DNA of 64,000 nucleotides from Rhizaria sp. SCN 62-66 (lineage: Eukaryota), in assembly GCA_001724265.1 (NCBI GenBank), contig MEDY01000052.1:1-64000 (forward strand). Reading direction: 5' to 3'. A model generated the notes under the pieces. It saw nothing but the letters and a program-made list of their open reading frames with translations, ran no database searches and was not told the DNA's origin. A program made the position numbers and the translations under genes. Below are positions 31,408-64,000 of the stretch, piece by piece. The stretch's first letter is position 1. The number at the start of each line of letters is the position of its first letter.

Positions 31408-34400
31408 CTGACGACGACGGCGACGCCCGTGATTATAAAGACCGGACTGAGACTTAGGCGCAGACTGCCATGTATGACGACGCGGCGAGTCCGCTACCGC
31501 TGCCGCCGCTGCTTGCTCTGTCGCCTATCGCCCCTTCGGCCGCTGCCTCTGCGCTCATTAGTCCCAGCCACACCGCTCATCTCCAGCCACAATTGCAGTC
31601 CCAGTCCCAGTCGCAGCGGCTTGGGACGCCCCGTGGCGCGCACCACCGCCGCACACCCAGCGGCATTCTCCGCGCCGGTGCCGCTGCAAACATTCCCACA
31701 TCTGTCGCCGCTGCTGCTGCTTCGACTGGAGACAATCCTGACGTGACGCCACCGCCGATGCCGTCGCGCGCGCTGCCGCGGCCCCGCGCGAGCCTCGGCG
31801 CCAGCTCCAACGGCGCGGGTGCGAACCCCAACGGCGCGGCGATTGCGAGTGTGAACGACACCGGGAGTCGACGCGCGCGCCGCGGACATCGCGAAAACAG
31901 TGACCGTGACCGTCCTCTTAACACGGGCGCAAACACTGGCGCTGGCGCTGGTTCTGGAGTGATCCGGGGCCGTGTGATGACTGGTGCTGCGAACGCACTG
32001 TGTCAGAACAACCGCGGCCAAAGCCAGACAACTAGCGTTAGCACAGGTACTGGTGGCGGCAGCGGCCCGGCGTCGGCGTGCGCATCAGCGTCTTCAACGC
32101 CGCTGATGACACCGTTGCGCAGGCCGTCTCCACTGCGACTGCCCGCCAGCCCCGCGCTCGCGCCCGCCACTGCGACGGAAGCCGCGCTGACTGGACGCGG
32201 CGGCCCCGGCATTGCGCCGAGTGCGAGCGTGAGCGCGAATGCAGTGGTTGGCGGGCGGCACCACAGGCAGCTGCTTTGGGTCCTCGAGGACGGCGCCACT
32301 GTCCCCGCCCCCAGCAACACATACGCAAACGTATACAGCGCTGGCGCAAACGCGGTGTCTACCGGCGCGATGTCGCCGCGCGATGAGCTCTGGGTGCAGA
32401 GCTACGGCAGCGGACTCGGCGCCGTCATCAGCGGGGACCTCGATGGCGACCGCGACCGTGACCGTGATTACGAGGACGCGGTCTCAGTCACAGAGACGCC
32501 CTATGCGGCGGCCAACACATCAGCGGCGGCGGCGCCTTACCCAGAGATGTCATACGCGTTCAACACCGGCGGCCGCCCGCGCACTCCGCTTCATACGCCG
32601 CCAGGCACCGCTGGCTCTGTTCTCATCAACGGCGGCGACGGCAGCCGTGGTGATGGCGCCGGCGCCGGTGTGCGGCTGGGACTCGGACTCGGACTCAGCC
32701 GACCTGACAGTGCGATGAGCCTTGGTGCGGCCTCGGTCGGTGGCCTCTCATTCTACTCAGACTCGCAGCAACAGCAGCAGTCTCAACAGCAGCCGCTGTA
32801 CTTGCATCAACAGCAACAGCAGCCGCGTCGATCGCCGCAGGGAACTATTGAGGCCGCTTTCCCCGTCGTCTCTAGAAGCGGCCACCGGCGCTCGGGCAGC
32901 ACCGGCGCGCCGATCCCCGGTGCCTCTACATTTCACACTGGCACTGGCATTGGCGCTGGCGCTATGGGCCGCAAGGGGCTGCGGCTGGAGCCGGCGCTGG
33001 TGCGGCGCGGGCGCGGTGACAGCACTGCCGGCAGCTACTACAACTACAGCGCAGCGGGCACGCCCTCTGCCGCGGCCGCTGCTGCCGCTGCTGCTGCTGC
33101 TGCTTCGGCGGCGACGACTGCAGCGGGCGGCTCAGCGGTGCGCGGTGTTGTTACAGTGACCGTAGGCAGCAGCAGCAGCAGCAGCAGTAACCGCAACAGC
33201 TTTGGCGCGACGCACACTGCGTTGAATCTCACTCTTGCGGCCGCTGGCTCCGGCTCAGCGGTGTCGCCCTCCGCCGCCCAATCCCAGCCACAATCACAAT
33301 TGCAGTTGCAGTCAGGACGGTGGGCTCCGGCGCGGTCTCGCTTCGCCGGACCGGACGCTGAGTCAGCGCCGCCGCTCGTGACAGTGCCGTTTCCGACGCG
33401 CGCCGAGGCGCGCCGTGCGCGCGCGCGCGCTGCTGCGGCCGTCACTGATTGCTCTGACTCGGACGCTGACGCAGACGCGGACGCTGATGCTGTGGGCAGC
33501 AGCAGTGACAGTGAGGACAACTGCGACGAGCTCGGCGGCGGCCGTGTGGACCGTGCCGCGCGCAGGCGGCTTAACTTCTGGAAAGAGTCCGGCGCACGCG
33601 CGCTCGCGCTGTTAATTCCGCCGTCCGCTCCCACCACCGTGACAATGTTTAACAGCAGTAACAGCAACAGCGTCAGCCGTGACGTCAAAGACAGCAACAG
33701 CAACGACGACGGCCAAGACACAAACGCCGCGGCGACTTCTGATGCAACGACAACGACGCCCAGAGCGCCCGAGTCTAGCTCCGCGAATTACAAGAAGGGC
33801 AAGGGTTTCTGGTTTCCCAGTGTTGCCGAGAGCAAGTCAGCGCACGAGGTCATCGATCCTAACGCCAGCGCTAGCGGCAGTGCTAGTGCCGGTGTGAATA
33901 TAAGTGCGAATGCAAGTGCGACTCAAGCCAAGCCGACGGCATTGCGTGCGTTCTTGACGAAAGTCTCGCCCGCGCTCGCCGCATTCCTGCTGCCACTGCC
34001 TGAGACAGTGCCCACCACTGCCGCAACAACCGCCTCTATCTCCGGATCAACGGCATCAACTGTGACAAAGTCTCCGCGCGCTGCGAGTGCCCCGCGGCCT
34101 GGTTTGTTTGCGCAGTTGTTTCGCCGCGCAGCAGCTGCAGTGTTGACTCCGACCGTGCGCGCCCGTCTCCACGCCGCCACATCCGCGTTCCGGCGGTGTC
34201 GCCGCGCTGTCCGGCTCCCGGCCTCTCTCATGGAGCCGCCGCCGCCGTGCGCCGCGGCCCCACGCGCGCTACCGCCTCCGCGCGTTGTCTGGCGTCATCA
34301 CGTCAGCGCACCGTCCCTCGCCCCCGCGCTAGCCGCCGCCGCAGCCGCCGCCGCTGCCGCCGCCCGCGCGCGCGCCGCGGCCCGGCTGGCCACCGCGCTG

Positions 34401-37400
34401 TCTGACGCCGACACGGCGCTGCGCGGACGGCTCGCACGCGCACCGGTACCCGCAAGCAACTGCGCGGCGCAACTGCTCGCGGCGCGCGCGGCGCTGGCGG
34501 CCGCTGCAGAGAGCTTTCTGACTGGGGATTTCCCGCTGAGCTCGCCGCGCGCGCTGACTGCGGCCGCTGCGGGCGCCGACGCCGCGGCGGCTGCCGTGGT
34601 CGTCGCGGCCGGCACTGCGGCGACGAGCACTGCGAACAACAGCAACAGCAGTACCAACGGCAACGTGAATGCGAAGAGCAATAGCGCTGTCAACGTTGAC
34701 TGCGACGGCAGCGGCAGCAATGACGACGAAGAGTTTGACTGCCCCAAAACGCCACAGGCGGCGCAGCGCGCGCCCTTGCAGCAGCAGCAACAGCAGCGGC
34801 TGAAGCCGCCTCGCTCGCCGCGCAGTGACGGCGACTGCGACCGAGAGCGCACTGATGACGACGACGAGTGCGATAGTAGCCGTGAGGGCGACGGCCCGAT
34901 CTCGTCGCCGCTCTGCACGCCCGTCAAGGCTCCAGTCCAGCCTTCCGCTCCGGCCGCTGCCGCTGCTAATGCAACCTCTGTCTCTGCCTCGGCGGGCGCT
35001 GCCGGCGCGACTGCGAGAGCTCCTGTGCTGCCCTCAACGGCATCCGCGGCCGCCGCTATTGCCGCTGCAGCAACTTCAGTCTCAGCCATCTCAGCCTCAA
35101 CAACTGTTGGTCTTGACTCACTGCCTCAAGCTTCTGCTCCTGCGCACACAGTCACAGTCACCGCCCCCCACGACGCGCCGCCGCCTAACAGCAGCAGCAG
35201 CAACAGCGATAGGGCCAGCGACGGCAACGGCAGCGGCGGCCGCGGTGCGGACCCGTGGGCGCTGTGGGTCGAGTGCGCGGCCCTGCAGCGCCGGCCGCCG
35301 CCCGCACTGGGCTCGCCCGCCGCGACGGCCGCCGCGCTGGACGCGCTGTGGGCGCTGCTCGCTGGCGCCTGGCAACGGCGGCTGTGGCGCGCGTTCGCGT
35401 TGCACCAGCGCCGCCACTGCCACACTGTCATACGGTATCACGACGACGACTGTGACGGCGACTGCGCGGGCGACTGTGAGCAGGTGAATGACCGTGAGCA
35501 CCGCACGGACGCCCACAGTCAAAGTCACAATCAGGACAAAAGTGACCGTGAGAAGAAAAAGGATGAGGAGCGGAGACTCGTGCACCGGCATGACAGCTCG
35601 GCGTGTGTTGTGCTGGCCCCGTCCGATGCCGCAGGCTCTGTTGCGAACTCTCCGAAAGCAAGCGCAACGGCAAACTCTGACAGCAACGACACGGCAACTC
35701 AAGTGCGCGCCCAAGACCGCAAAATGAGTCTGGAAATGCATTTCTTGCCTGAGGAGGCCGCTGCGCTTGCCGCAGCAGCTGCAGTGCCCGGCGGTTTGTT
35801 GCCCTTGTTGCCGCTGCCTTACATTCAGCCGCAGTTCAGCAACGCCGCGGCGAAACGCGCAGCCGCGCAGAATGCACTGTTAAGCGCTGATGTGGACCCC
35901 GCAGCGCGTGTTGATGTCGAGCGTCTGCTGTTTGGCGACTGGCCGCAGCAGTTTGCAGCGCTGTGCGCACGTCTTGTTGCGCTCGCTAACGCGGATTTGC
36001 CTGCACTGACTGAGAATAACATTGCCAACAACGCCACGGTGCTCGCTAACTCAAATATTGTGACTGCAAGTGACGATGCAGTGCTGACTGTCAATGTTGC
36101 TGACTCCAACCCTCGAGCCGTGCACAATCGCACCGACAGCCGCAGTGACTACCACAGCGCGGCGAGGTTCCTCCCCAGCGGACTCTCGCTGCCGACAATG
36201 GCGGGCCTTTCGCTTGTTTCCGCGCTCCTGCCTTCGCCCACTTCAGCCTCAGCCTCAGCATTGTCCCCGCGCGGCGGACTGCCCTCGGCCCGTAGTCCTC
36301 AGACTGCCGGTGACAGCGCTGGAGGCAGCACTGCCGTCTCAGTCTGCGAAGTCACCTGCACAACCGAGCATAACAATGGCTGCAACAATACCAGCGGACG
36401 CGAGGGCTGGTTGGCTGTGCCGTGCTCGTGGTGCCCCACCGCGCCCGCCTGCGCGCCTGCAGCCGCCGCAGCGCCGCAGTTGCCTCCGCGCGCGCCAGTA
36501 TTCCTCGACAACGGCTACCTCGACGCCGCGCTGCGCCTGCTGCTGCCCGGCTTCCTGTACAACTCGCGCGCGGCGCGCTACGTCGCCAAGTTCTCGCTCC
36601 CGCTGCTGTACATCTACCAGGCCGCGCAGGCGCTTGTCGACGGTCTCCTGCCACTCCTCGGCTCCGCCTTTGCGTGGTTGGCACCGTGGTACGCGCGCGA
36701 GCTGGCCGCTGTGCGCACGCTGCTGCTCACGGTCTTTTCCCCGCTGGACTGGCTCGTGCGCGGCGCTGTCGTGCCCACGATCTCGCTCCTGCTGCGCACG
36801 CTCGTCTGGCTCTACGGCGCGGGCTCGTTGCTGCTATCCTGGCTGCTGCTGCCGCTGCGCGTGGCGGACGAGCTACTCGCCGTGTTGCTCGCGCAGCTGC
36901 ACGAGTACGCCCGCGGCGCGTGGTCCTACTACGAGCTCGCCGCGCTGCGTGAGGCGCTGTCGGCGATGGCCACGCAGCTCACTGACGCATTCTCGCTCAC
37001 ACGCGCCGCCGCTGCCACACTCCACGCCGCGCTGTCCCCGCTTGCCACGGCGGTGCAGGAGGTCGCTGTCCGAGCGGCCGCTGCGTCCGCCGCCGCCAGC
37101 GCGCGCCTGGCCGAGATCTGGCGCGAAGTCGCGGTCTACTTCGACACCGCCGTGCTCGCGGATCTCTTGTCGCCGCTGCGTTTGCTGCGGTCCGCGTCGG
37201 CGCATGTCTCGGCGGCGTGGGAAGGCGCGCGCGCCTGGGCCGCAGGCTCGCGCTCCGCGCTGCAAGCGGCCAATGCGGCCGCCGCGGCGTCGTCGGCCGC
37301 GACGTCGATGTGGGAGCGCTACTACGCAGGCGGGCAGTCGCTGTACCGCATCTTCGCGCGCTGTCAAAAGGCGCGCGTGCGTGTGCGCAAGAGTGTCGTC

Positions 37401-40400
37401 GTGCCGGACTCGCCGCGCACCGCCGCAGCGTCGTCGGCGACTGCGGTGGAGTCGGCCGGCGCTGTCGCGACTGGAGTCGCCGCCGCGAGGGGACTCGCCC
37501 GTGGCGCCGGGCCTGGCATGGGCGCCAACAACGCGGGCGGCGCGGGGGTCGACAGGACGGGGGTTGAGAGCGGCCGCGCACGCGCACGCGGGGCCCGTGA
37601 CCGGCCGCTACGGTCCACCCGCCACCCCGCCGCCGCAACCGCTGCTGCTGTTGCGGCGCCGCTGTCTGCGTCGGCGGGCGCGCTTGGCACCCGCGGCACG
37701 CGTCCTCCGCGCCGTGGCGACGCCTTCACTGACGCCGGCGCCGGTGCACTGTCGCCTCTGCTGCCCGGCGGGTCGCGCAGGCTCTCACGGCGCCCGCGCG
37801 CTGTCATCCGGACCACATCTGCCACGCTGGCGATGGCTGGTTCCGTCGCCGGGCCAGTCACCGCGGGGATGCGTCAGCGGCGCAGTGCTCGCGCCTCTGG
37901 TGCGAACGCTGTCACGATGGCGCGTCTATCGCGGGCCAGCGCGCGCGGCGCTCCTAGTGCGGGCGCGGGCGCTGCAAGTGTGGCGGCCGCGGCGGCGGTG
38001 GCGGGCGCTAGAGCGTACCACTCCGACTCCTCCGGCGCCGAGAGCGACGGCGACGAAGAAGACGATGACGAGGACAATGACGGTCACTTGGACGAAGACG
38101 AGGAGGACGAGGATGCCACTGACTCTGACAGTGCAGCGTATGATCGTCATTACCCGCGTCATAGTCACAGTAATCACAGTCAGAGTCGCAGTGGCAGCGC
38201 GCTCGACGGGCTCCGGCTGCGTCGCGGCCATCTCCACAGTCAAACGTCCGCGGTCTCCGCGGTGTTGACTCGCCCGGCCCCGCGCCGCCGTGTGCGCGCC
38301 GAATATCATCCCGCGTTTGACCACAACCATCACAATCACGGTGGCGAGTTTGGCGATGAATACGGTGAAGACGGGCTCAGTGATGGCGGCGACGTCGACG
38401 CCCTCGTTTTTGGCCCTCGCGCCAGCGGTGCTTCCGCGCTGCGCGGCGATTCAGCGCTGCAAACTCAGCCTCCGACGCGGCCTCGGCTGCGGCTTGTGTC
38501 GGTGCCGATCGCGCGCACCGCTGCGGCCGCCGTTGCCGCGCCCACGAAGACGCGCCGCACGCGCGCGCGCACCGCGGCAGACCGCCGCGCGGTAACGGGC
38601 GCTAACACCGCTGAAGCTGCTACCGTCGCTGCTGCGATTCGCGGTGAAGGTGAAGGCGGCCGCAGCGGAGATGAAGACGATGAAGATGACTTCAATAGAG
38701 ACATTGAAGACAACGGCGGCGACGAAGATGGTGACAAGTTTGACAGCAGTGACTTCGGCAGCCGGCCGCACAGCCGCACTGCTGCTCGCGGCCGCGGTCT
38801 CGCTCGGTCTCACGTTCACGCTGCCGACGCATCAGACTCGTCGTCTTCCTCGTCGTCGTCGACATTGTCATCAACGTCGTCGTCCTTTGCGTCTTTGCCC
38901 GGCTCCTCCGTATCCTCCTTCTCGCGATCTCAAACACTATCGATGACGCAGGAAGAGCCTTTGGGTGTGCAGCAGCAACAAGATAAAGAGCCTCACAATG
39001 CTCACGGTCGCGCCCCCAGTCGTCATCACGGTCACGGCCACGCAAAGCCGACGGGCGCGCGCGCGGGGCCACAATCGCAGTTGCGCCCGCGCGTGCCCGC
39101 CGCTGGCCGCTGGTCGGCCGCTGGCGCCGTCACTGGCACCGCTGTCAAAAGCAAGGCTGCCGCGACTGGTGGCGCGCGTGCCGGTGGCGGTACCAAGGCG
39201 CGCCGGCGTCTCTCGCACGCGCGCCGGCTTACCTTCGAAACAGCCGAGGCCGCGGAAGAGGCTAGCAATAGCATTGCCGACGCGAGCGCAAGTGCAGCAA
39301 GCAGTGCAGTTGCGGTGCAGGCGGAGGCCGAGAGCGGCGGTGCTGTTGGCGCGTTGCGTGGCGCAGTCGGGCGTCTGCGCTCCTGGGTTATGCCAACGCT
39401 GCCCACTGCTCCTGTCGTTGTTGCCGAGCCCGAGTCTGTTGCTGCTGAGGCGCAGACGCAGGTGCAGACTGAGAAGCCGGAGGCTGAGACTGAGGAGACT
39501 AAGTCCACTGCCACTTCTTCTGCCGCGGCTCTGCCTGTGACTGATGTGCCTGAGGAAGACGCTGAGTCTGCAATCGATGCTTTACACAGCGTTAAGGCTG
39601 CAAATCCTGACGCTGGGGACGTTGATGCAGTCCCTGACGATGACGTCGGTGACACTGCGCCTGCAGTTAACACGGTGGACTCAACCATCACTCATGCTGA
39701 CAATATTAGCGCCCACGGTGTCGATGACGGCTTTGGTGAGGCTGACGACGTATACAACGCTGAAGACCACTACGACGACGAGGATGAAGATGAGGATTGG
39801 TGCTACGACGAAGACGAAGACGACGGCTACAGCGACTACGACGACTACGGTGAAGGGGACGAAGGCGACTATGTTGATGACGACGCAGAAGACGAAGACG
39901 GCGAAGGCGATAGTTGGTTTGATGAACATGAGGACCAGCACGATGCTCATCTCACAACGGACATCAACAGCAGTATGAACCACGATGGCAGCGTTGAGCT
40001 TGTTGAGCACGGCAACGCTGTGCTAGGCTCAGTTCCCCCGCTCGCAGCAGCGCTTGACTCAGTTCCTGAACTCAACTCAGTGCCTGCGTTTGATTCGGTG
40101 CCTTCTCTTGCATCGCAGCCCTCGTTAGACTCAGTGCCTGCGTTCTCAGGCGCGATGCTGGCGACTCTTGGCGACAATGGAACCCCGCTGCCGTCACCGC
40201 TGCAATCACCCCTGCAATCGCCCGTCCTGTCTCCGCTCGCTTCGGAGCCCGCCCAGTCCAACGCCAGTGCCGTCGACGCTCATGGGCGTAAGAGCGAGCG
40301 GGTCAGTGAGGATGATGTCGAAGGCGATGCAGACGATAAGCTTGGTGACTTGCCTAGCTCACAGTTGCAATCGCACCATCAACAAGCGCCGGCGACTGCC

Positions 40401-40466
40401 GTGTTGACGCAGCACCCACTGATGAGTGATCCGAGCATTGCAGCTCCTCACTATTTCTCGCAGTAA
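27993..40466 (+). CDS. Giant low-complexity protein (4157 aa if the in-frame TAG at 31455 is read as sense), with hydrophobic patches
   Basis: ORFs 27993-31457 and 31470-40466 are in the same frame, separated only by TAG-GCG-CAG-ACT-GCC, with no AT-rich spacer or intron signals. Ends TAA followed by an AT-rich spacer. Confidence 0.7.
31321..31408 (+). repeat. Coding tandem repeats: 21-nt unit x2 (DAHGGHS) followed by (GACGGC)n (poly-DG)
   Basis: gcgacgcccacggcggccaca is duplicated, followed by about 7 GACGGC units. Confidence 0.85.
40024..40146 (+). repeat. Degenerate 18-nt coding repeat (LDSVPE/LNSVPA/FDSVPS/LASQPS/LDSVPA)
   Basis: Hexapeptide periodicity is visible in the translation and DNA (gactcagttcct / gactcagtgcct). 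Confidence 0.7.
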
Positions 40467-41211: not shown

Positions 41212-42768
41212 TCAGTCGTCCCCGTCCTCTTTCTGCGCGGCAGCACGTGCGGAGGCCATCTCAGAGTGTAGCTCGCGCGCCAGCGCAACCACGCCTTCTG
41301 TGAACTCATCGTAATCGTCGTCATCATCGTCACTGTTGGCGGCCGCAGCGGCGGACACAGGGGGTGCAACAACGCCCTTGCCCTGCTTGGCCTTGTTATC
41401 CTTCTTGCTCTTGTTCAAGGCCTTGCTGCCACCGTCATTGGTGCCGCTCTGAGTCGACACAGGCGCAGGAACGTCCTTCTTCTTTGCAGCAGAGGCACTG
41501 GAGCTAGATTGGGGCTTGCGGTCGCGCACAGCGCCATCAGCGCTCTTGTCGTCGCTATCTTCAGCCTCCGACTCAGCTTCGCCGTCCTTCTCGCCGTCGA
41601 CGTCATCCTCGTCGTTGCCACTGTCGCCGTCGCTGTCGCCGTCGCTGTGAGAGTCGCGGTCGCAGCCGTCAGAGCAGGGTTTGGTCTTGCCAGCGGCAGA
41701 CTTGATACCGGGGGCCTGCGCGCCGGGGTACGCTTCGTAACCATCGTCGCTGTCGTCGTCATCCTCAACCTCGCTGTCAGAGTCGTCTGCGTCAGCGCTC
41801 CTAAGAGTAAATCGTAGAAAGGAAACAGAACAGACGGCGACGGAGTGAGAAAAGCTATGGAGCATAGAGTCACAAAGGAAACGATGATATAGAACAGAAA
41901 TAGGATAAGTCACATTAAACACGTACTTGTTAGCGGCGCCGCACGCGGGGGCCTTGTAAAGGAGCGCAACAGCGGCCACGAGCGCAACTGCAGTACTCAG
42001 CACGAGCATCGTCGAACCAACCGCGTACTCATACTAATGAGAGGAAATCAGAAAAATATGAAAGCACATGAGATAAAAATAAAATACAGTACAGAGTTAC
42101 AGATGGTATAAGAAATATTTGGATTATATATCGACGTACAAATTCCTTGGTGCGCAGGACCTCGTAGAGGTGAGCGAGGTGCGTGGTGTTAAGCAACAGC
42201 AGCCCACCGAGTCCGATGACGAGCGCAAGCCGCGCAACCGTGAGCAGCTGTACCTGCCGCGGCGACAGCGCGCGCACGGCCCGCGGCGCCTCCCCGGCGC
42301 GCGGCGGGCGGCGGTCGCGGATGAAGCGCGACTGCGAGCGGTCGAAAAGCACGGCCCAGAGCGCGGACTTGGAGTCCTCGGCGCGATGACGCCGTGCTGT
42401 CGCGAACAACAGGAGCGCGCTGGGCACGGCCATCACCAGGCACAGCGTCTGCGAGCCCGCAAATGCGCGCCGCAGTGTCACAGGGTCCGAGTGCTCCAAC
42501 ACGCGGAAGAGGAAGACCTGGAACGGGTCGTTGAGAAGCTGTACGAGCGGAGTAATGTTGAATCGCAAGGAAGTGTTCAGGAAGGTTGTGAGCGCGGTCA
42601 AGCAAGAGAGACGGGATACAAAGGGCGGATAAAGATAGAACGTACGCGCCGGTAGATGATGACCGCATTGAACGCAACCGCAAACGAGATGAGGAGCTGT
42701 GTAACGGAAACGTAGATGCTCTTTTTAGGGGCAGCCACAACCTCAACGGGAGTATCTGTTTTTGACAT
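41212..42768 (-). CDS. Hypothetical multi-pass membrane protein with acidic C-terminal tail, 4 exons
   Basis: Exons 42768-42646, 42538-42140, 42033-41927 and 41800-41212 join in frame through three GTACGT..AG introns. About 4 hydrophobic segments and a D/E/S-rich tail. Ends TGA. Confidence 0.75.
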
Positions 42769-43033: not shown

Positions 43034-43648
43034 TTAGTCGGAGTCCTTGCCCGCGCCGCCCTTGCCGATCTTGGACGTAAGCGTGCGCGCGACACCGCGA
43101 ACGAGATAACTCGCCCTCTCGAGCGCGCCCATGTTGTTCACTTCGCGCTGCACCAGCCGCATGCGCTCAGCCTCGTCGAGTTGCTGCGCCAGCCGCATGC
43201 GCGCCTCGCTCTGCCGCGCCGCCGCCGCCGCCGCTCCCGGCAGCATCTCCGGCTGCACCATCGACGACGACGCAGCGTTATTGGCCATACTCGGCGACCC
43301 CTTGGCCTTCACGCCCGCGCCCACGCCACTCTCGCCGCTTCCCGGCGCCACCGTCTTGCTGCCGGTTGCGCCATTCCCCGTGCCGCGCTTGATGTGGATC
43401 TCCATCAACACAGGTCGCTCCGCCCCGCCCGGCACTGCCGTGGGCGCCAGCGTCGCGCGCGTCACCTCATCCAACACGCCGCGGCCGCGCATCCCGGCGC
43501 CGACGCCCGGCACTGTGACGGCGCCAGGGCCCATCACGGCGCCGCGCGGCGGCTGCAAGGGGCCCGGGACAGGGCCGAACACCGGCGCCAAAGGGACAAA
43601 GCTTGGGGAGTTCGCGGACTGACCGTATCCGCTGCCACTGCCACTGCT

Positions 43649-43684
<36 letters not shown>

Positions 43685-46600
43685 GCCCTGTTGCACAGTG
43701 AACCGGAGTCCGCGCTTGCCAGTGACGGGATCCACGCTATCAACCATCGCAAACACCGGCGCCGACGCCACAGGCGCAGGGGGGAGAGCAGCGGCCTCAC
43801 TGTCGCTCCCACGGCCACCACGCCGCGATGCCGTTGATGTCCCTGGAGCTGCAGTGGTGGCGGTCGTTGAGAGTGTAGCGAGAGAACGCTGATGCTCAGC
43901 CCATCCCCAGTCACGCTTTTCCCACTCGTCCTCTGCTTCCCAGGGCCCGGCGCCGGCACCGCCCGCCGTGGCCGCCACAGGCCGCCGCGCGCCACCGCGC
44001 AATACCGCGCGCTCCCGTTCCCGCTCGCGCTCACGGTCACGGGCGGCGTTGTTATAGCCCGCGTCGCGGTCGCGGGTAACGGCGGATGTCGCGCGTGCCG
44101 CGGCCGCGTAGGACAGATCACTGGCACCGCGGAGAGCCTGCGCGACGAGCCGCACACCCGGTAAGCCCTGGCCGGGGAAGTAAAACGGCCCGTGCCGCGG
44201 CTCCCTGTGCTGCTGCTGTTGCGAAGTCTTGGCCGCAGTTGCTGCGGCGGCAGCGCTCGAGGCCGAGACGGGGCCGTTGGGTGAGTACTGATCCGGGACA
44301 TCAACGGGGATCACGCGGGCCGCAGCAAGCTCTGGCGGCAGCTCCGCGCCGCGCGACTCCGGGATGGTGTACACGCGCGCCACCGGCGTCGCCGCCGTAA
44401 CCCGCGTCAACGGGTGATGATCCGCGATGCGCACCACGCGCACACGCGCGTCCGAGTCTTCGAGGAACGCGGGCCGCCGCGCCAGCACCCACTGCGCCGC
44501 CGCGCGCTCCTCCGCCGTCACGGGGACCGCAGAGGTGCCGTCCGCGAGCGACGACAGGCGCCGGTACAGCTCCTCGTTGCGGTGACGTCCCTCGGCGACG
44601 TGCTGCTTCTCCCGGTGCAGCGCCACGAAGTACCGGATAATCTCGCGCTGCCGCGCCTCCATGCCGCGGCGGCGGATCGGCTCCGCCAGCGCTTCCAGCT
44701 GCGACACAAACGCCGCGTCGCTCGCCTCGCGGCGGGCCAGGGACCCACGCTCGAACTAGTCGAAGAACGAGACGAGGAAGCGCTGCTCGAACGCCTGCGC
44801 GGCCGCGGGGGTCAGTCCCGCCGGTAGCGCGGGCTCGTCAGTAGAAGAAGCCTTCGCGCCGCCGCGGTTTGACTGGCGGTTGCCGTTAGAGCCCGCTCTG
44901 GCGGCCACGATGGCGGCCGAGGCGGCGGCGGCGTTGCGGCGCGCGGCGAGAGCGGCCGCGCCCGTGGCCGACGCCGCCGCCGCCGCGACCGCCGCCGCGG
45001 CGGGGGTGGGGACAGCGCCAATCGCGCCGCCGCCCAGCGCGTCCGCGCGCAGTACATCATGCACGCTCACGGGCACAGTGCTCGCGCTCCCAGTCGCGGT
45101 CGCAGTGGAGCTGCTGCCGCTGGTGGCGGTCGAGTCGGCGGTGTCGGTGCGGCGCGGGCGCTGCGTGGCGGCGGCGGCGCGCGCGCGGGCGCGGAGACGC
45201 GCCTGCTGTTGCTGCGGGGCGCCTAGCAGCGCGGCGGCTGGGTCAACCAGAGTGAGGTCTTGGAGCCCGTTGATGTCTTGCAACTGCAGCTCTTGCAGCA
45301 GAGCACCCGCTTCGGCAGCCAGCGCGGCAGGATCAACACTGCTTGCGCTCGCGTTGACGACGTTAGCATTCATATTCTTGTTGTCATCAAGGTAGATGAG
45401 GGAGCCGTCCTCAGCAGTGATGACGTTGCTCTTGTTGTCATTAGAGCCATTGGAGCTGGGGAAGCGCAGAGCGCGCGCGGCACTCGCATTGTTATTGTTG
45501 TTGGCGCGTGTAGACCTGTTATCGGCGGACTTATGGGGCGACTTGTGGTGCCCCGTCCCGGTCACGGCCGCCGCGGCCGCGGCCGCCGCCGCAGCGGACA
45601 CTGCCGAGGACGAGTGCAGATGCGAGCCCTCACCGAGCGCGGCGCGAAGGGCGTCAGCCGTGCGGTACTGCAATGAAGCGCGGTCGAAATACAGTCCACG
45701 GCGGGCAAGCTCGCCGGCTTCCTCAGCGGCCTCTGCGGCGGCGTCATCACCATCTTCGTCTTCGTCCTCGTCTTCATTGTCGTCGTCGTCGCCATCCTCG
45801 CCGTCGCCGCTGTTATAGCTGTCGACGACGGCGTTGGCGCCGTGCAGACCGTAGCGATGACCGCTTCCGTGGCTGTGTCCACCGTGGTTTAGACCGTGAC
45901 CGTGGACGTGGCCGTGGTGGTGTGAGAGCGCGTATGCGGCTGCGGCGGCCACATCAGACTCGTCAAGTCCGGCCTCATCAGCGCGCCCACGGTCACTTAG
46001 CTGCTCACGGTCACTGAAGCGGAAGTCGAGCCCCAGATCACGGTCGCGCTGTGCAAGCCGCTGACAAAGCTGTTGCTGCTTCTTTTGCTCTTGAAGAGCG
46101 GCCTCGCGCTTGCGCAGTGCGTTACGACGTGCAAATGCACGCAGCATTGTTTCCGTGTCGTTGTCATATTCGCTATCGCCGTCCTCGTCGCCATCAAGGT
46201 TGTTGCCGTTGTTCTGATACGCACTGCCGATGGTGTTGTTGTTGTATCCAGAGCTATTGTCACCGTGAAGCTCGTGACAGTTGTTATTATTGTCGTTGTG
46301 GTCATCGCCGAGCGCGAAAACGCTCGAGTTGAGCACCCTCGCCAGCGCGCCGCGCCCGCGCTCGCGGCTACGGCTGCGGGAGCGACTTCGGCTTCGGCTG
46401 CGGTGGCGGTGGCGAGTACCGGCGCCTGCACCGGCGCCGCGATACTGTTGCTGGTATTGATAGAGACCTTGCTGCACTGCTGCCGCGGCGGCCGCGGCGG
46501 CCGCAGCGGCGTCGTCGTCGTTGTTGTTATTGTTGTCATCATCGTAGACGTACCCGTAGCCAGAGCCATAGCCGAATCTCGCGCTGTTGTAGTATCCGTC

Positions 46601-48289
46601 GGCGGGCCCCAGACCGGGGACATCGCCGACCAACGCCGCCGCGGCCTCGGCAACTGCGGCGGCGTCAGCGTCATCCGCGGAGAAATCAGCCGCGAAGTCA
46701 CCTGCGGTGGGGGCTCCAGTGTCGTCCTCGGGCTGGTAGTAAAACAGCTCTGGAGCGCCACTACTCACGGTCACTTTGCTGCCCACGGTCACGCCCACCT
46801 TGCCAGCGCCGTTGCCGTTGCCGTTGCCGCTCCCGCTGCTAATGCTGCTGCCCACGGTCACCCCCCTGTGGCCGCCGCGACCGCCGCTGCCCACAGTCGT
46901 TCGCGCGGACTCATAACCCTCGTTGTATCCGGCGCCGTACGTTTGACTGTACGTATCAGCTTCGTCATCGTGACCGTTGCCGTTAGCAAAGCCGTGATTG
47001 TCGTTGTTCTCGTGATAGTTGGCGCCGTTGGCATTCTCAGCAAGCGCGTTCGCAGCGGCCTCGTCGTCGCGACTTGCGTACCCACGACGACTCCCATCAC
47101 GGTCACGGTCACGGTCAGCGTAGCTATTGTTGTTGCCATAAAGCGGGATCAGTCCCAGCCCTAGTCCACCGGGCCCAAGACCCAGCGCTGCGGCAAGCGG
47201 GTGCTGCGCCCGCTGCCCGGCATCGCGTGCAACACCCCCACCGCCAGTACCGATCAACACACCGCCGGTCGCATTCCTCCCATTGCTCAGGTTCGCAGTG
47301 TGACTCGGGATCGCGCTAGCATTGGCGCTGCTCGTGTTGCTGTTGTTGTTAGCGCGGCGACGTTCGCGGCGGAGAGCAGTGGTGAACGCCGAGCCCAGAC
47401 CAAGCCCGAGCCCGAGTCCACCTCCATTCTGACCGTGACCGTGGCCGAGGCCGACAGCGCCCAGCTGCAGGTACAACTGCTGTTGCTGCGCCTGCGCCTG
47501 AGACAGATACAGCGACTGCGACTGAGATTGGAAGGCCTGTGACTGTGAGTTGGTGGGAGCCGGCGTGTACGCGTCGAGAGGAGGGGTGGGGGGAGCCGCC
47601 GTCACGACGCCACCGAACTCACCGTGACTGCCGTTGTTATTCGAGTCAAATCCAGCAAAAGAAGAAGAAGAAGACTGTGGGCCGAGGGCAGGAGAGCGCA
47701 CGTTATCCCCGCCGTACCCGCTGCGTCCTCCATAGCGAGTATTAGAGTGACCGTGAGCGCTGTTGTTGTGACCGTGGGAGTGACCGTGGGCGCGACCGCC
47801 GCCAGCAACCTGGAGGTAGTACGGCACGTGCGGTGGCGCAACGGCAGGCACGCTGATCACCCCAGGCACCGTCGACGCAGAAGAAACAGCAGCAGCGGCG
47901 GCGGCGGCAGCGGCGGTGATAGAGCTAACAGAACCTGAGTGTCCGGCATGAGTATGCGGCACAAGCGCCGAGTGCTGGCCGAGCGAGGCGTCGATAAACA
48001 CGCGCTGCTCAACAACGTGCCGCCGCAGCTGCTCGTTGGCCGTCGCGAGCAGCGCGCGCTGGTACGCGAGCTGTCGGGAACGCGCCTCGGCTTCGGCCAG
48101 CGCGGCGGCCTGCTGCTCGAGACGCGAGGCGAGACTGTCCTGGGCACTCTCGGCGCGCTCGCGCTCCGCGGCCTCGGTTTCGATGCGGGACTAGAGGTAT
48201 TGGATGTATAGCTCCGGGTTCTGCTGCTTGATATCGTCCAATGTGGGGGTGGACGACTCCAGAGGCTCCCACGAAGGAGGACTCGACAT
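43034..48289 (-). CDS. Hypothetical 1751-aa protein (N-terminal coiled coil, low-complexity core) containing two in-frame TAG codons
   Basis: One frame from ATG 48289 (MSSPPSWEPLESSTPTLDDIKQQNPELYIQYL*SRIETEAAERERAE) through TAG 48193-48191 and TAG 44758-44756 (LVSFFD*FERGSLARRE) to TAA at 43036-43034. Confidence 0.72.
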
Positions 48290-48705
48290 GGGGCTGAATT
48301 GCAAGGTGCCGGGAGAGATGCAGGGATGACTTAGTGAGATATAATAAGAAGGCAATATAAAAAATAAACAGCCATGTCAGGTTTGATCGGAAGCATCTCA
48401 GTTTACGGTCACAGTAAGTCCAGAGACTCTGTCTAAAGCAGGACGGATTTTGGGCACGTGCAGCTCGCGTCACCCACCGGGCACTGGTGGCGTCCGTTGT
48501 TCTCACAACTAACTCCTCCAGGACACAAGTACGTTCACGTATCGTTAAAATTGCTATGTATTAGTACGCCCAATCGCGGCCCTAATCTCAACGCACTATA
48601 ATTTCGCGTGTTTGATGCCAATCAAAGCCTGTTTTCGTTGGCGCGCTAAAACGGTCAGTCACGTTCTCAAGGTCTCCGAGCGGTAGTCGCTCTCGACGAA
48701 TAAAC

Positions 48706-49857: not shown

Positions 49858-49888
<31 letters not shown>

Positions 49889-54277: not shown

Positions 54278-54739
54278 GACTACTTAGAATAAAAGTCGTC
54301 ATAATAAGGAAAAATGAGTTTTTAGAGAATTTAATTTAGGTATCAAATACAAAATGACATATTATTTCAGGATTAACGTAGTAAACATCTAGCAACGGAG
54401 ATATTGATGAATTAACTGCAAAACAAGTTGTCGATCTGTTGCTGCTGGACTCGCGCAGCCGTCGCGCAACGACTCTCGAATCGGTTCATCCTAGAAAAAC
54501 ATGGCGTATTGCGTACTAACGTGTCACGGTAGAAATAAAAATGATAAGAAATATGTATTATACACACTAAAGTAGAATACGAAGGCATTTCCCCTTCAAC
54601 TAACACAAGCCACTGCAATGTATACGTCTTCCGAAGAGCGACGTATCATGAGATTCGACGAATCGACTCAGCGCGAGCTATTTAGCTCCGCTTCACTGGA
54701 CGTAAATCACGCGTTGTTGTTCCCTTTGTAGTAATAAAT

Positions 54740-57079
54740 TTACTCCATCTTGGAGCGCTTAGCCTGAAACTCAATCTCGCGCTCATCACGGAACGCAGTG
54801 AGCTTGCCTTCCCACTTCTTGGCCTCCGCGATCACCGCATCAGCGTCGAGAGTGGTGAGCTTGCGCGCATTCAGCCGGCGCTCACCGCGCACCCACACGT
54901 CCGTCACGGCCTCGCGCGAGGTTGAGTACACAAGGTGCGACACCACGGAGAACATGGGGACCTGTGACACGGCGTTGAAACGCACGGCAACGACATCAGC
55001 TTCCTTGCCGGCCTCAAGTGATCCGACCTTTGCCTCGAGACCGAGCGCGCGGGCGCCGTTGAGCGTCGCCATCTGCAGCGCGGTGGCCGCAGACACGGCC
55101 GTGGCGTCCTTGGAGACAGCCTTGGCAAGAACGGACGCGAGCTTCATCTCGGCAAGCATGTCGAGGGCGTTGTTGGACGCACATGAGTCGGTGCCAATCG
55201 CGACGTTCGCGCCAGCCTTCATCAGAGCCTAAGATCGAACAATACAAAGAAATATGAAGCAAAAATAGAATTATTAAGATAAATACAAAATCTTACCGAT
55301 AAATAAATACAAGTACACAAAATCTTATGAAATTTACACCATTAACATGATATAAGATGTCAATTACACAGAAGTGTTACGTACCTGGACCTGGGTGAAG
55401 CCGGAGGCGAGCTTGAGGTTCGAGTAGGGGCAGTGCACGACATGCGTGCCGCGCTTGGTCACAAGCTCAATCTGCGCCTCGGTCAGCTGCGTCATGTGCA
55501 CCGCAACCGTGCTCGGCGTGAGCAGACCGAGCCGGTCGAGGTTATCCAGCGGCGCAGTGCGCTGGTCAGACCTGTGGCAAGACCCCGACGCGCTGTTGCC
55601 AGCGATGGAGTCCGCGACTTCGGCCTCAGTCTCGTGGACGTGGATGTGCAGGCGGGCGCCCGCGGCCGCGGCGGCGTCCTTGCAGCGCACCATGTTCTCG
55701 TCGCACACCGTGTACGGCGCGTGCGGGCACACCGCGAAGGTGAGCAGAGGGTGGCCCTTGAACTTCTCCGCCGCAGCGAGTCCCTCGCTGAGCTGGCCCT
55801 CGATGGCGTCCTTGGTGGGGAAATCCATGATGGGGAAGCCGACAACGGCGCGCATGCCGGCCTTGACCGCGGCGGCCGCCGTCGATGCGGGCTGGAAATA
55901 CATATCGTTCACCGTGGTCGTGCCCGACTGGAGCATCTCGGCGAACGCGAGCTCGGCAGACGCGGTCACGAATTCGGGGGATACAAACTTGCCCTCGGCG
56001 GGCCAGATGTCCTTCTGCAGCCAGTCACCGACGTTCTTATCGTCGGAATACCCGCGCAACAGCGACATGCCGACGTGCGTGTGCGCGTTGATGAGCCCGG
56101 GGATGAGAGCGTGGTCCTTGCTGAGGTCCTCGGTCACCGCGGCGGTGTACTTCGCGCGCGCCTCGTCGATCGGCAGCACAGCGACAACCTTGCCGTCCAG
56201 CACGGCCACGGCATGGTTCTCCAGCACGGCGCTGGGCGCGGCGGCGGCCACGGGGAGTACCCAGCGCGCGCAGATGAGGGTGTCAACACGGGTCTTACCA
56301 GCCGCGGTATCGGCGGCGGCGGCGGCGGCGAGCTCGGCCGTGGTGGGCTTGAGCGCGGCGACAACGCCCGCAAGAAGGAGCTCAACGGTGCGGAGGTTCT
56401 TGGCGACGCCGTCGTGGAACTCGTCCGTGGTGAGCGAGGCGACGTCGAAACCGTTGGCCCAGTTGTCGGTCATGCACACCGCGGCGTAGGGAAGCCCGGC
56501 CTCCTTGCACAGCACGGCCTCGTGCGCGGCCGTCATGCCAACCACGGCGCAGTCGCGCGCAAAGAGACGAATCTCGGCCTTGGTCTCGAAGCGCGGGCCG
56601 TGCGTCTGGAGGTACGTGCCGGAGACGTGGACGTCACAGCTGGCGCTTTGGCCGATGGTGCGGACGCACGACACCAGCTGGGCGCGGAGATCGGCGTCGA
56701 AGCCCGGGATAAGGTGCGCGCGCGCGTCGTCAAAGAAAGTGATGGGGTCGAGGCAGAGGAAGTCGTCGGGCACGACCACGGAGCCGAGCGCGATGTGGCG
56801 GTTCATCGAGCCCGTGGAGTTAAAGGCAATCACGCGCGCCACGCCGAGAGTCTGCAGGGCGCTGATAATCGCCTTCTTGTTGATGAGGTGCGGCGGGGAG
56901 TACGCCACGGCGGGGTCCGCGGCGTGGCGCTGCACGAACACGACACCGTCAGCGTGGTTGAACCACAGCTTGACCTGACCGTGGGGCGTCGTCCGCACCT
57001 CAGGCACGAAGCTGTTCTGCGCGAAGTACTCGCTCTTGAGGAAGTTGGAGCCGCCGATAAGGCCGAGGTACTTGGACAT
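54740..57079 (-). CDS. Fusion protein: N-terminal MTAP/MTIP-family nucleoside phosphorylase plus C-terminal MTA/SAH deaminase (amidohydrolase), 2 exons, 727 aa
   Basis: Exons 57079-55385 and 55228-54740. Phosphorylase motifs: LGLIGGS, FVQRH, PPHLIN, STGSM, GPRFETKAE, VGMT, DNWANG. Deaminase motifs: PGLINAHTH, PHAPY, HIHVHET, VHMT, HCPYSNLKLASG, GTDSCASNN. Ends TAA. Confidence 0.92.
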
Positions 57080-57647
57080 GCTCGTGCTGCAAGGAGGCGT
57101 GTTGGCAAGTAGAGGTTGAGTGTGAGGAAGATAGGTGGAAGCAGAGCAGGGCGTTCGGAGAAAGGAAAGCGGAGATGTGGCGCATGACGTGGATACGGCG
57201 CGTCGCCTTCCGGCTGACATACGCCGCGTGGGAGTTAAGAAATACGCAAATCAAAATAATATACACGCGTCATATTTAGTTCATCATAGCACGTCTGAGC
57301 CCAAATGACAGAGCGTTGCCTCGTGAAATGCACGGTTCAGAAAAACCTCGGCGACAGTCTCCGAAGCGAGCAGAGCGAAGAAAACAAAACCCTGCGCCGA
57401 CCTGGCGAGAGCTCCCAACCGACCTGTGCGCACACCGGCTGACTTTGCAGCTGTCGCTGGAGCTCTAACGACTGTCGTTTGAATCATACTGATTGCTGCA
57501 CAATGTCATATGTCATTTAATATTTGTTGACTTTATTTTTATTCTTCTCTTATTGATCTGTCTTCTCATCTACCTTTTTCTTTTTACCCCGCCCACTCTC
57601 TCCCACCATGTCTTCCTCCGCTCGTCCGTTGGCCTCCAGACTCGCCG

Positions 57648-59659: not shown

Positions 59660-60117
59660 GCGTGACAGAGCGAGGACTGAACCGCGAAATGTGAAGTGGC
59701 TCGCTTCATGAGTGTGAGGCGATAGAGTACATTGTAGGGCCAGGTGCAATTTAGGTTTCATCGCTGTTATTCCTATTATTACAAATAAAACACATTAAAT
59801 TCACAATCCATTAATCTATTTCACTCCGAATCTTCGACTCGAATAATCATTGTATGGAAACTATTTTTGTTCTTAACACAATGCTCAGTATTACGCAAAT
59901 GTAAGCGTTTGCTTGCAGTCTAGCTGTGTTTTCTCGTTGATGCGACACAGGGTTGAAAATGCACGCGGGCCCCGGTCCAACCTGGGCCTGTGATGTGCAC
60001 TTGCTGACGCTGTGTGCGTGTGGGACAAGTGAAATCTTGCACTGCTGTCTAAAGCAGTCTGTCTATCTAAAATAAAAAATCAGTCTACCCTAATGTGGAA
60101 CATTGCTTCACACAGTT

Positions 60118-63100
60118 TTAGCCACGGAACCAGCGCGTCAGCAGTCCAGCGCCAGCCACAGGAGCTTGCGCGGGCGCAGCAGTTTTGCCTGTCGCACCAG
60201 CGCCAGCACGATGGCCACCGGGCATAGCGTTCTCAGCGTCATCACCTTCGCTCTCAGCAATGCTGTTGTCGCCGTCGTCATCATCCTCAGCGTCGCGCGC
60301 TGCCGCGGCGGCCTCGAGATCAGCAATGCGCTGCTGCTGCGCCTTCATCGCGTCAAGCAGCTTGCGCACGCGCGCGCGGCCCTCGTTGACCTCAACCTCG
60401 AGCTTGTCCTTGGCGGCAGACACTTCCGCAAGCGCGACGTTGCTTTCGGAGAGCTTCTCCTCCAGCTCGCGCGCAAGCCGCGTGACATCAGTTGCGCGCC
60501 ACGCCTCGAACTGAGTCAGCTTCTCTTCCGCCTTGTCGCGCTGCGCGGTCACCTTGGCAAGCTCGGCTTCATGCGCCGCCGTTGTCGCAGCCACAGAAGC
60601 CGTCGCCCGTGCGCTCGCGGCGGCCTCGGCGTCAGCCTTCTCCTGCGCCAGCGCGCCCGCGCGCAGCTCAGCGGCCGCGGCCTCACTGCGCGCAGCCTCG
60701 CGCTCGCGCGACAGAGCAGCCTCACGGTCCGCCAGCGCGCGCACCTGCTGCTGCAGCCCGTCGCGCTCGCCGCGCAGCTTCGCAGCCTCGGCGCGTGCCG
60801 CCGCAGCGCCCGCCGCGGCCTCGGTAAGACGGCGCCGCAGTGACGCAGCCTCTTCTTCGGCCGCAGCCGCCGCCTCGCGCGCGGTCTTGCGGACGGACTC
60901 GAGCGACTGACGCAATGCGACGAGTTCGCTCTCGGCACCGGCGCGCCAGGCAGCCTCGGAGTCACGCTCGCGCGCGCGGTCCTCGACAGCGGCACCGACG
61001 GCCTGCGTCTCAGCAAGAATCGCCTCCAGCTGAGTCGCCAGTGACGCGCGCTCGGCTTCGACCGCCGCAAGCGCCGCCGCAGCGTCAGTGGCAGCCGCAG
61101 CCGCCACACTGACCTCGCTCGCGGCCGCCGTGCGCGCCGCGGTCGCCGTCGCCAGGCGCGCCGCGTCCGCTGCAGCGCGCGCGTCAGCATCGGCCAGCGC
61201 CGCCTCGGCAGCACCGAGCGCCGCATTCGCTGCGGCGGCCTCGGCACTGGCGGCCGCGGCGGCGTCGTTAGCGACCGCTGCAACGCGCTCGAACTCAGCG
61301 AGCTGCTCGACAGCGCGTAGAAGCTCGCCCTCAAGCGCCTCAGCGCCTGACTCAAGCTCTGCACAGCGCGCACGCGCAGCGGCGGCGTCGGCCTCCGCAG
61401 CAGCAGTTGCGGCTTCCGCAGCAGTGGCGGCAGCTTCAGCCTCAGCAGTGGCAGTTGTTGCAGCGGCGCGCGCGTTGGCAAGCTCGAGAGCCAGCGCGGC
61501 CGCTGTAGCCTCGGACTCGGCGCGGGCGCGCTCAGCAGCGCCATAGGCGGCCTGAGACTGCGCAAGCGCGGCCTGCGCCTGCGCCAAATTGGCTTCAGCA
61601 GTGGCGGCGGCGGCCTGGGCGGTCTTCGCCTCCGTAAACGCGGTTTGCGCCGCCTGAGCCTCCGCTGCGGCAGCAGCTTCCGCCGTCTCAACAGCAGCCA
61701 CAGAAGCTTCCACCGCGGCCTCAGCAACCTCGAGTCGCTCTTTAGCAGCGGAAAGCTCAGCCTGGTACACGCAGAGCTCCTCGCCCGCACCAGCAGCGTC
61801 GTTCTGCGCGGTCTCAAGAGCGGCTTGCATTTTGCGAAGCTCAAACTGCGCGGCCTGCAGCGCGCACTGCGTCGTGCTAAGCTCGCTCTGCGCAGCCGAA
61901 AGCGCGCTTTGCGCTGCGGCGCCATCATTGCGGGCGCCGTCACGCTCAGAAGTTGCAATATCACGCGCGGAAACAGCACTATCACGCTCAGTACGAGTGC
62001 CGTCACGCTCAGCCAAAGCGTTGTCGCGCTCAGCAAAGGCAGCGTCACGCTGGGCACAGGCAGCAGCTTGCTCAGTCTCAGCGGTTTTGCGCGCCACAAA
62101 AGCAGCATCGCGCTCCTCAACAAGGCGATCACGGACAGCATTAGTGGCCTTGTGCGCAGCCTCGCTCTGAACAAGCGCGGCGCGCGCCTCAGCCAAGTCA
62201 GCCGTACTCTGCTTAAGAGCAGCGAGGCTCTGCTCAAGCGCGCTCTGGCTCTGCGCAAGATCGATCTTGCACTGACTCAGATCCTTCTCACACTGAGTGA
62301 GCTCGGACTTGCACTCAGAAAGTGCGACCACAGCGGCGGCAAACTCAGCCTGCGCGCGCTCACACTCACTGCGGCTGGATGCAAGTGCAGCCTGAAGCTG
62401 TGCAACTGCAGCCGCCTGGGCCGTAACCGCAGCCTCCGCCTCAACCACAAACGCACGCGCAGCGGCAACCTCAGTATCGGCCTTAGACAGCGCGGCACGT
62501 GCGGCGATAGCGTCAGCCTCCGCAGCGGCAGCGCTCTCTTTAGCCTCTGCAGCCTCAGCGAGTGCAGCCTTGGCAGCGGCCCCAGCCTCAGCAGCAGCCT
62601 CGAGGGCCGTCGAGGCCTCGGCCTTGGCAGCACTTGCCTCCGCATTAGCGCTCTCAGTCTTAGCGCGAGCGGCCGCAGCCTCGCTCACAGCATCAGCAGC
62701 GGCCGCGAGTGCAGCGGACGTCGCTTCACCGGCAGCAGCAACGGCGCTCTTGGCGGCAGCGGCCTCAGCCTTAGCGGCCTCAGCCTCTGCGGCAGCTGCA
62801 ATAACGGCAGCCTGGGCAGTCTGAGTCGCAGCCTTCGCGGTCGCTGTCTCGGCCATAGCAGCCTCCATATCCGACTTAGCGCTCTGAGCTTCGGCTTGAG
62901 CAGCCTTAGCATCAGCCTGAGCGCTCTGCGTGGCAGCCTTGGCAGCCTCAGCTTCAGTCGTAGCAGCATCAGCCTTTGCATTGGCGGCAGCGCACTCGGT
63001 CTTCGCGGTCTCAGCTTCAGTCTTGGCTGCGTCAGCCTCAGCATTGGCTGCCTCAGCGGCACGCTTCGCAGCCTTAGCCTCAACCTTAGCAGCGGCCACA

Positions 63101-64000
63101 TCCGCAGCAGCAGCCTCAGCAGCAGCCTTCGCAACAACAGCCTCATCCTTAGCAGCCTGAGCATCAGCCTTGGCAGCGTCAGCAGTCGCGCTCATTTCAG
63201 CAGCCTTAGCCTCAGCAGCCTTAGCCTCAGTCCGAGCAGTCTCAGCCGCAGCAACTGCAGCAGCCGTGTCGTTCGCAGCGGTGGCAGCCTGCGCCTGAGC
63301 AGACTCCGCCTCAGCCTTGGCAGCGGCCGCAACAGCAAGCGCGGCTGAGGCTTCAGCAATAGCCTCAGCAGCTGCAGAGTGCGCAGCGGTGGTCTCTGCC
63401 TTTGCGGCCGCAACCTCTGCAGCGGCAGCAGACGCGGAGGCAGTCGCAGACGCAGCCTCCGCCTTTGCAGCAGCTGCCTCAGCCTTGGCTGCAGCAGCAG
63501 TAGCATCAGCAGCCGCAGCAGTAGCCTCTGCAGCCGCGCACTGCGCCTTAGCCTCAGTGGCCTCAGCGTTAGAGGCCGCAGCAGCAGCAACTGCAGCAGA
63601 AGCCTCTGCCTTAGCCGCGGCCTCAGAAGCCTCAGCAGCATTAGCGCGGGCAACTGCAGCAGAGGCCTCCGCAAGGGCCTCAGTTTTAACGGTCTAAGCC
63701 GCAGCAGCAGTCTCGCGTGCATTCTCAGCAGCAGCCTTGGCAGCCGCAGCGTCAGCGTTGGCGGCGTCAGCGTTAGCCGCCGCAGTCGCGGCCGCAGCCT
63801 GAGCCTGAGCCAACTTGGCAGCAGCGGTCTGCGCGGCCGCCTGGGCGCTTGCAGTCTCAGCTGCAGCAGCCTCAGCTTTCGCGGTTGCAGCAGCAGCGGT
63901 GGCATGGGCAGTAGCAGCCTCAGCGCTTGCCGCGGCCACAGCGCCTTCGGCAGCATCGCGTGCAGCAGCCACTTCGGCCGCCGCAGCAGCCTTGGCATCA
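60118..64000 (-). CDS. Very Ala/Glu-rich long coiled-coil protein (5' end outside window), with an in-frame TAG at 63696-63694
   Basis: ORF 63972-63694 and ORF 63195-60118 are in one frame. Hand translation of 63693-63196 shows no stop. Heptad RD repeats (RDAAFAE RDNALAE RDGTRTE RDSAVSA RDIATSE). Ends TAA. Confidence 0.85.

Follow-up and report, generated by a model that had tools for sequence, protein, structure and literature searches.

In-frame TAG codons in a GC-rich wastewater protist contig suggest that UAG is read as an amino acid while UAA and UGA remain stops

The stretch of DNA analyzed here (hereafter the window) comprises 64,000 nucleotides (nt), positions 1 to 64,000 of contig MEDY01000052.1 in the assembly GCA_001724265.1, deposited as Rhizaria sp. 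SCN 62-66. It contains three long genes, which we call A, B, and C, whose reading frames are interrupted by four TAG codons. These TAGs lie within otherwise intact frames and TAG is never found at gene ends, and the organism therefore probably reads UAG as an amino acid, tentatively glutamate (Glu), with UAA and UGA serving as terminators.

Gene A (27993..40466, plus strand) is a low-complexity orphan of about 4157 codons with a codon score of 576. TAG 1 (31455..31457, plus strand) is its codon 1155, in the context TET*AQT (the asterisk marks the TAG), flanked by open frames of 1156 and 3002 codons and with a GC content of 0.64 within 60 nt either side. Gene B (43034..48289, minus strand), an orphan of 1751 codons, carries two TAGs. 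TAG 2 (44756..44758, minus strand; FFD*FER) lies within a predicted long helix, and TAG 3 (48191..48193, minus strand; YIQYL*SRIE) is 32 codons past the ATG at 48289, directly upstream of which the sequence is rich in pyrimidines and, with a CAG, resembles the 3′ end of an intron. According to the translation, the next in-frame methionine of gene B is approximately 760 codons beyond TAG 3. Gene C (60118..63999, minus strand) has more than 1293 codons, 43% of them alanine (Ala), with its 5′ end outside the window. TAG 4 (63694..63696, minus strand; AAAA*TVKTE) is preceded by 101 open codons, as far as the edge of the window, and followed by 1191, and is surrounded by an Ala/Glu-rich, repetitive, coiled-coil-like protein. 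All three genes end with TAA.

When TAG is treated as sense, the frames merge into ones spanning 27831-40466 (plus strand, 4212 codons), 43034-48376 (minus strand, 1781 codons), and 60118-63999 (minus strand, 1294 codons, open at the window end). When TAA or TGA is treated as sense, the main coding open reading frames (ORFs) gain at most 129 codons, only at their ends and in AT-richer sequence. The main coding ORFs of the window have no interior TAA or TGA, and the roughly 7,200 codons of the three TAG-bearing genes also have no frameshift. Past each of the four TAGs, 574-3003 codons go by before another in-frame stop, and GC content is 0.64-0.73; beyond the 19 gene ends with TAA or TGA, another stop follows after 2-44 codons, in sequence with a GC content of 0.29-0.56. 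Ten stops in the window are flanked on both sides by at least 150 open codons. In eight of these the frame is non-coding and 150-665 open codons lie on either side, and the two in coding frames are those at 31455 and 44758, with flanks of 573-3002 codons. The frames of genes A, B, and C, by contrast, have the highest codon-usage scores in their regions. The other TAGs that bound ORFs are intron acceptors or belong to 5′ untranslated regions, so the four constitute the full count in the gene models: 4 in approximately 17,000 codons, or about 0.24 per 1000 on the sum of model lengths.

Gene ends show the complementary pattern. Among the 19 gene models with ends, the terminal stop is TGA in 10 and TAA in nine, and TAG in none; the probability of finding no TAG in 19 ends is 0.014 if TAG makes up 20% of stops and 0.004 if it makes up 25%. 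Nor was a TAG found near the 3′ end of any main coding ORF of the window. A few ends are supported by homology: the alignment of the eIF3i protein with its homologues reaches the last residue, and the match of the amidohydrolase exon extends to position 343 in a profile of 345.

Introns of this genome have a recognizable form, against which the TAG sites could be compared. For three introns, two in the TM231 gene and one in the amidohydrolase gene, the flanking exons match consecutive positions of a Pfam profile, which validates them; a fourth, in a gene for an LYR protein, was read from the sequence, and a fifth (G14) was inferred. All five begin with GTACG, are 106-268 nt long, and have a GC content of 0.25-0.41. 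For example, a TM231 intron (7317..7487, minus strand; GTACG donor, TAG acceptor, GC 0.37) separates profile positions 4-141 from 147-221, while the intron of the amidohydrolase gene (55229..55384, minus strand; GTACGT donor, TAG acceptor, GC 0.25) separates Amidohydro_1 positions 2-233 from 238-343. The acceptor is TAG rather than CAG in three of the five (7317-7319, 42034-42036, and 55229-55231, minus strand), and a TAG unrelated to coding therefore bounds many of the window's ORFs on their 5′ side. Local GC content at the four in-frame TAGs is 0.61-0.70, in contrast to the 0.25-0.41 of the introns, and no GTACG is present on the coding strand within 1 kb upstream of any of them. Any intron at these sites would need a length that is a multiple of three, and the combination of GTACG donor, AT- or pyrimidine-rich body, typical length, and preserved frame was found at none. 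Placement of TAG 1 in a short intron was considered and rejected, as the sole GT..AG candidates read from the sequence, of 29 and 35 nt, shift into a closed frame. The four TAG sites do not resemble introns of the window. Several claims of the initial annotation of this DNA were borne out: it had placed in-frame TAGs in three genes at 31455 (plus strand) and 44758, 48193, and 63696 (minus strand), and both coordinates and contexts were confirmed, as were coding-style GC-rich sequence on both sides, the lack of internal TAA and TGA, the intron type with GTACG donor and AT-rich body, the lack of such introns at the TAGs, and the lack of a TAG at any conserved position.

Sequencing data from other sources bear on two of the sites. 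Reads were compared at a likeness threshold of 90%, at which cross-matching low-complexity sequences of other organisms filled the list of splice joints; the sites covered were 44758 and 48193. In the DNA run X3, which comes from a different study and year, the TAG at 44758 was kept at a depth of 5.56 with no other letters, and an X3 contig of 1516 nt (46734-48249) crosses 48193 with no differences. The TAGs at 44758 and 48193 are not assembly errors. Run X4 represents a strain with scattered single-base differences, one of which, A to C at 44758, changes TAG to GAG (Glu) on the coding strand; this GAG comes from one contig at a depth of 2.5 and could therefore be an error. Across gene B, strain single-nucleotide polymorphisms (SNPs) were synonymous in eight cases and non-synonymous in three, where 3.5 synonymous would be expected (P = 0.006), and those downstream of TAG 2 comprised three synonymous and no non-synonymous changes. 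This synonymous excess points to translation, and selection on the reading frame, downstream of both TAG 3 and TAG 2. Single-contig insertions of 3, 6, and 6 nt in low-complexity tracts of gene B (47032 and 47495 in X4, 45750 in X3) indicate that its repeats change length in frame.

Features expected of programmed readthrough were also sought. The bases following TAGs 1 to 4 (GCGCAG, TTCGAG, TCCCGC, and ACCGTT) have no shared motif, and fold z-scores of 0.14, -0.46, 0.52, and -1.95 give no shared downstream RNA structure; neither a common motif nor a stable structure was thus found. A single-sequence AlphaFold model of 206 amino acids around TAG 2 had a mean predicted local distance difference test score (pLDDT) of 64, with residues 11-128 in blocks of 76-90, and placed TAG 2 inside one continuous predicted helix (residues 14-60, block pLDDT 80-87). 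The predicted helix running through the TAG would lend minor support to a sense reading.

With respect to the amino acid, Glu is a serious candidate, to which we give somewhat less than an even chance, while glutamine (Gln) appears doubtful and other residues share what remains. Beyond the GAG of the X4 strain, Glu stands at the position of TAG 4 in the best-matching internal repeats of gene C (for example, AAAA-E-TASAQ and VAAA-E-TARTEA), a weak hint from sequence comparison within one protein. Among the top 40 repeat matches the commonest residue at that position is Ala, which is expected at an Ala content of 43%. Pyrrolysine, which to our knowledge does not occur at UAG in eukaryotes, was set aside.

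A change of this kind would involve a tRNA with anticodon CUA that reads UAG, which a single change in the anticodon of tRNA-Glu(CUC) or tRNA-Gln(CUG) would produce, and a loss or weakening of UAG recognition by eRF1. The very low usage of UAG would fit a young reassignment. As a speculative proposal that we consider on the unlikely side, the window may come from an uncultured, flagellated, GC-rich wastewater protist, within a purely environmental eIF3i clade, that has independently undergone a very early reassignment of UAG to Glu, with UAA and UGA as stops, UAG confined so far to long disordered proteins, and UAG and GAG interchanging between strains. We know of no NCBI translation table in which UAG means Glu and both UAA and UGA terminate.

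Sequence comparisons suggest that the host of this DNA comes from a lineage for which the eIF3i matches include no named genome. The window has a GC content of 62%, with sharp AT-rich dips separating genes and a GC content of 0.2-0.5 in intergenic regions, and matching DNA occurs in bioreactor, wastewater, and activated-sludge metagenomes. Its eukaryotic genes include those for eIF3i (25476-26486, minus strand), TM231 (6633-7919, minus strand, three exons), a fusion of a PNP_UDP_1 phosphorylase/nucleosidase with Amidohydro_1 (54740-57250, minus strand, with the intron at 55229-55384 splitting the amidohydrolase part), a DBP5/DDX19-type helicase, endonuclease V, a GT8 glycosyltransferase, a USP-type ubiquitin hydrolase, TSR2, Nsp1/Nup62, and the LYR protein. 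TM231 is a protein of the ciliary transition zone, and the presence of its gene implies a flagellated or ciliated stage; the organism probably bears flagella. Among the 120 eIF3i matches listed, the best named ones (chytrids, Plasmodiophora, and Balamuthia) have 44-48% identity. For DBP5, named matches reach at most 39% identity and environmental matches up to 42%, apart from the closest relative (P0001) at 61%; for eIF3i, a relative (P0181) reaches 72%. In a single-gene eIF3i tree of 32 rows picked from the 120 matches listed, consisting of the window, 14 of the 15 named sequences (a second Phlyctochytrium, P0221, was omitted), and 17 environmental ones, the window groups with P0181 in a fully supported clade of 11 environmental sequences, P0135 and P0153 also among them. 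This clade is apart from chytrids, plants, Balamuthia, Plasmodiophora, and Fibrocapsa. Plasmodiophora is the sole rhizarian in the tree, and the window is not grouped with it.

Searches for relatives of the TAG-bearing genes gave little. Pfam searches of genes A, B, and C returned nothing above curated cut-offs and one sub-threshold GAGA_bind row. An exhaustive HMMER search with 371 amino acids around TAG 2 found no match among 1.84 billion representatives, and a word-indexed search with 300 amino acids around TAG 1 found none either, its candidates being swamped by low-complexity proteins. A scan of Joint Genome Institute (JGI) metagenomes found no relatives of gene B, and a scan of GTDB genome contigs gave no match. 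The JGI scan with eIF3i recovered L001, a 4.4-kb contig of the same organism without the TAG sites, and L002, a distant relative in the eIF3i clade (147-kb contig, GC 0.53, 50% eIF3i identity), of which positions 1-20654 were examined. The 21.9-kb contig of P0181, which like P0001 has no accession, was not among the contigs recovered. In that segment of L002 we found no interior stops with long open flanks, and neither gene A nor the USP gene had a homologous or syntenic counterpart there. The gene ends of L002 suggest that a strong preference for TAA as terminator could be characteristic of the clade.

Several observations weigh against decoding of UAG as an amino acid. The gene models themselves (19 with ends, approximately 21 genes) are our own, built from ORFs, a codon score, and partial Pfam support. 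All four TAGs are in low-complexity orphan genes, and no alignment gives the residue at a TAG position. There are no tRNA genes in the window, an Rfam scan of it was also empty, and the gene for eRF1 is not part of it. Poly(A) RNA contigs are present downstream of TAG 1 and TAG 2; none is listed as bridging a TAG, and coverage at 44758 is zero. An in-frame ATG at 31470 is four codons downstream of TAG 1, which makes the case weakest at this site. In one X4 contig of low depth, single nucleotides are inserted at both 43211 and 43213, where gene B is rich in repeats. The strain SNPs in gene A are non-synonymous in three of three cases. Random nonsense mutations in genes A to C would yield TAG in 61-63% of cases, and the probability that four of four would be TAG is about 0.14; given that bias in genes so rich in GC at third codon positions, the argument that all four interruptions are TAG is weak. 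The GAG in X4 suits a fresh nonsense mutation from GAG to TAG equally well. Of eight major ORFs examined in L002, seven were complete; TAA ends six of these and TAG the remaining one. A reassignment in the window, if real, would probably be derived within the clade.

Some of these points fit the idea that nonsense mutations, either fixed or still polymorphic, created the TAGs recently in low-complexity genes that are dispensable and evolve fast, and whose downstream frames remain open for lack of time. TAG is the likeliest stop to arise from this codon usage, the GAG of X4 could be the intact ancestral state, every site is in an orphan without homologues, and the gene A SNPs are all non-synonymous. 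However, four such events would be needed in three of approximately 21 genes, the roughly 7,200 codons concerned would have had to escape any frameshift, TAA, or TGA, and TAG 2 and TAG 3 would have to be shared with X3, a run of separate origin and date. The synonymous excess past both TAGs of gene B runs counter to this idea as well, and the lack of TAG among the 19 gene ends would be left unexplained; we regard it as improbable. Similarly improbable in our view is an ambiguous or leaky UAG, acting as a stop in some contexts and read through efficiently in these genes by a near-cognate or suppressor tRNA or through position-dependent termination, as in Condylostoma and karyorelict ciliates. 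Ambiguous stop/sense codes have been reported, the very low usage of UAG is compatible with one, and 19 gene ends are too few to speak against rare termination at TAG. On the other hand, the four TAGs have neither motif nor structure in common downstream, and none of the 19 ends is a TAG.

Two further explanations seem very improbable to us. Editing of the mRNA, for example adenosine-to-inosine (A-to-I) conversion of UAG to UGG, could remove the stops before translation. A-to-I editing in fungi favours UAG, and such a preference would account for interruptions by TAG only; yet TAG stays an ordinary terminator in the fungi with such editing, whereas it ends none of the 19 genes here. Furthermore, the strain variant is GAG and not TGG, and the host is not one of the filamentous ascomycetes, its eIF3i falling in an environmental clade. 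Editing of premature stop codons has been reported in filamentous fungi (PMC7306014; 10.1101/059725). Under wrong gene models, the TAGs would be true stops between adjacent genes in the same frame, which is most plausible at site 1, where the ATG at 31470 follows, or parts of unusual GC-rich introns. Same-frame open neighbours do arise by chance, as the eight cases in non-coding frames illustrate, and intron acceptors here are often TAG. Nevertheless, GC content dips at none of the four sites, unlike in the AT-rich intergenic regions; 34, approximately 760, and approximately 290 codons without an in-frame methionine follow TAG 2, TAG 3, and TAG 4, respectively; the 29- and 35-nt candidates at site 1 enter a closed frame; and the GTACG donor is absent within 1 kb upstream of every site.

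Decoding of UAG as an amino acid thus remains our preferred reading, and the broader claims of the initial annotation fared unevenly. Its proposal of a sense UAG beside a terminating UAA is favored by interior interruptions by TAG only, by gene ends with nine TAA and no TAG, by the lack of intron features, and by the SNP excess, and more weakly by the observation that all four interruptions are TAG. It had named Gln or Glu as the residue; the variant at 44758 fits this and favors Glu, albeit on a single contig at low depth. The conserved genes of the window have no TAG, in agreement with the claimed absence from housekeeping genes, but that absence is not significant (0 in approximately 9,800 other codons, P ~0.1). 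Independent DNA kept TAG at 44758 and 48193 in X3, while the X4 contig has GAG at the former.

If UAG is indeed sense here, a further independent case would inform the evolution of release-factor specificity and of suppressor tRNAs. A non-ciliate, GC-rich, unsampled lineage could then show a rarely observed early phase of reassignment, with interchange of TAG and GAG. Gene callers that assume the standard code would split or truncate such genes in wastewater metagenomes.

UAA and UAG are almost always reassigned together. Reassignment of UAG alone is reported in few lineages, namely Iotanema, the rhizarian exLh, and some ciliates (PMC5304391; PMC11687900). In exLh, UAG encodes leucine (Leu), and in Iotanema spirale it encodes Gln, both being nuclear codes in which UAA is kept as a stop (PMC5304391). 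As in these two, only UAG interrupts coding sequence in the window, UAG is not a terminator, and the organism is a non-ciliate protist. For exLh, 384 in-frame UAGs were reported in 71 genes, at conserved Leu positions and more rarely in highly expressed genes (PMC5304391); the window, in contrast, has four, all outside conserved positions, in approximately 17,000 codons, and its single hint of identity is Glu, in contrast to both the Leu of exLh and the Gln of Iotanema. Moreover, the eIF3i of the window does not fall with that of the rhizarian Plasmodiophora.

Phyllopharyngean ciliates, known from uncultured, metagenome-derived genomes, read UAG as Leu or Gln and prefer UAA as stop (PMC11687900). 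The window resembles them in the recoding of UAG alone, in UAA as stop, and in an uncultured source. In those ciliates suppressor tRNA genes were identified and UAG use is widespread, whereas the window has 62% GC, GTACG introns of 106-268 nt, and no tRNA gene. Ciliate macronuclear genomes are AT-rich and have tiny introns. An uncultured oligohymenophorean ciliate is said to read UAG as Glu and UAA as Lys, and the window resembles it in that UAG is decoupled from UAA and that Glu is possible for UAG. The two codons encode different amino acids in that ciliate (PMC10553269), UAA being sense as well, whereas TAA ends 9 of 19 genes in the window. In Blastocrithidia nonstop, UAR encodes Glu and UGA encodes tryptophan (PMC12153298), which provides a precedent outside ciliates for UAG as Glu; there, all three stops are recoded and UAA has a dual role, whereas TAA and TGA are plain stops in the window. 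A search of a limited body of literature found no report of a wastewater protist with a code of this type. The code of the window would differ from the known cases in its lineage and in its far rarer use of TAG, and perhaps also in the amino acid that UAG encodes.

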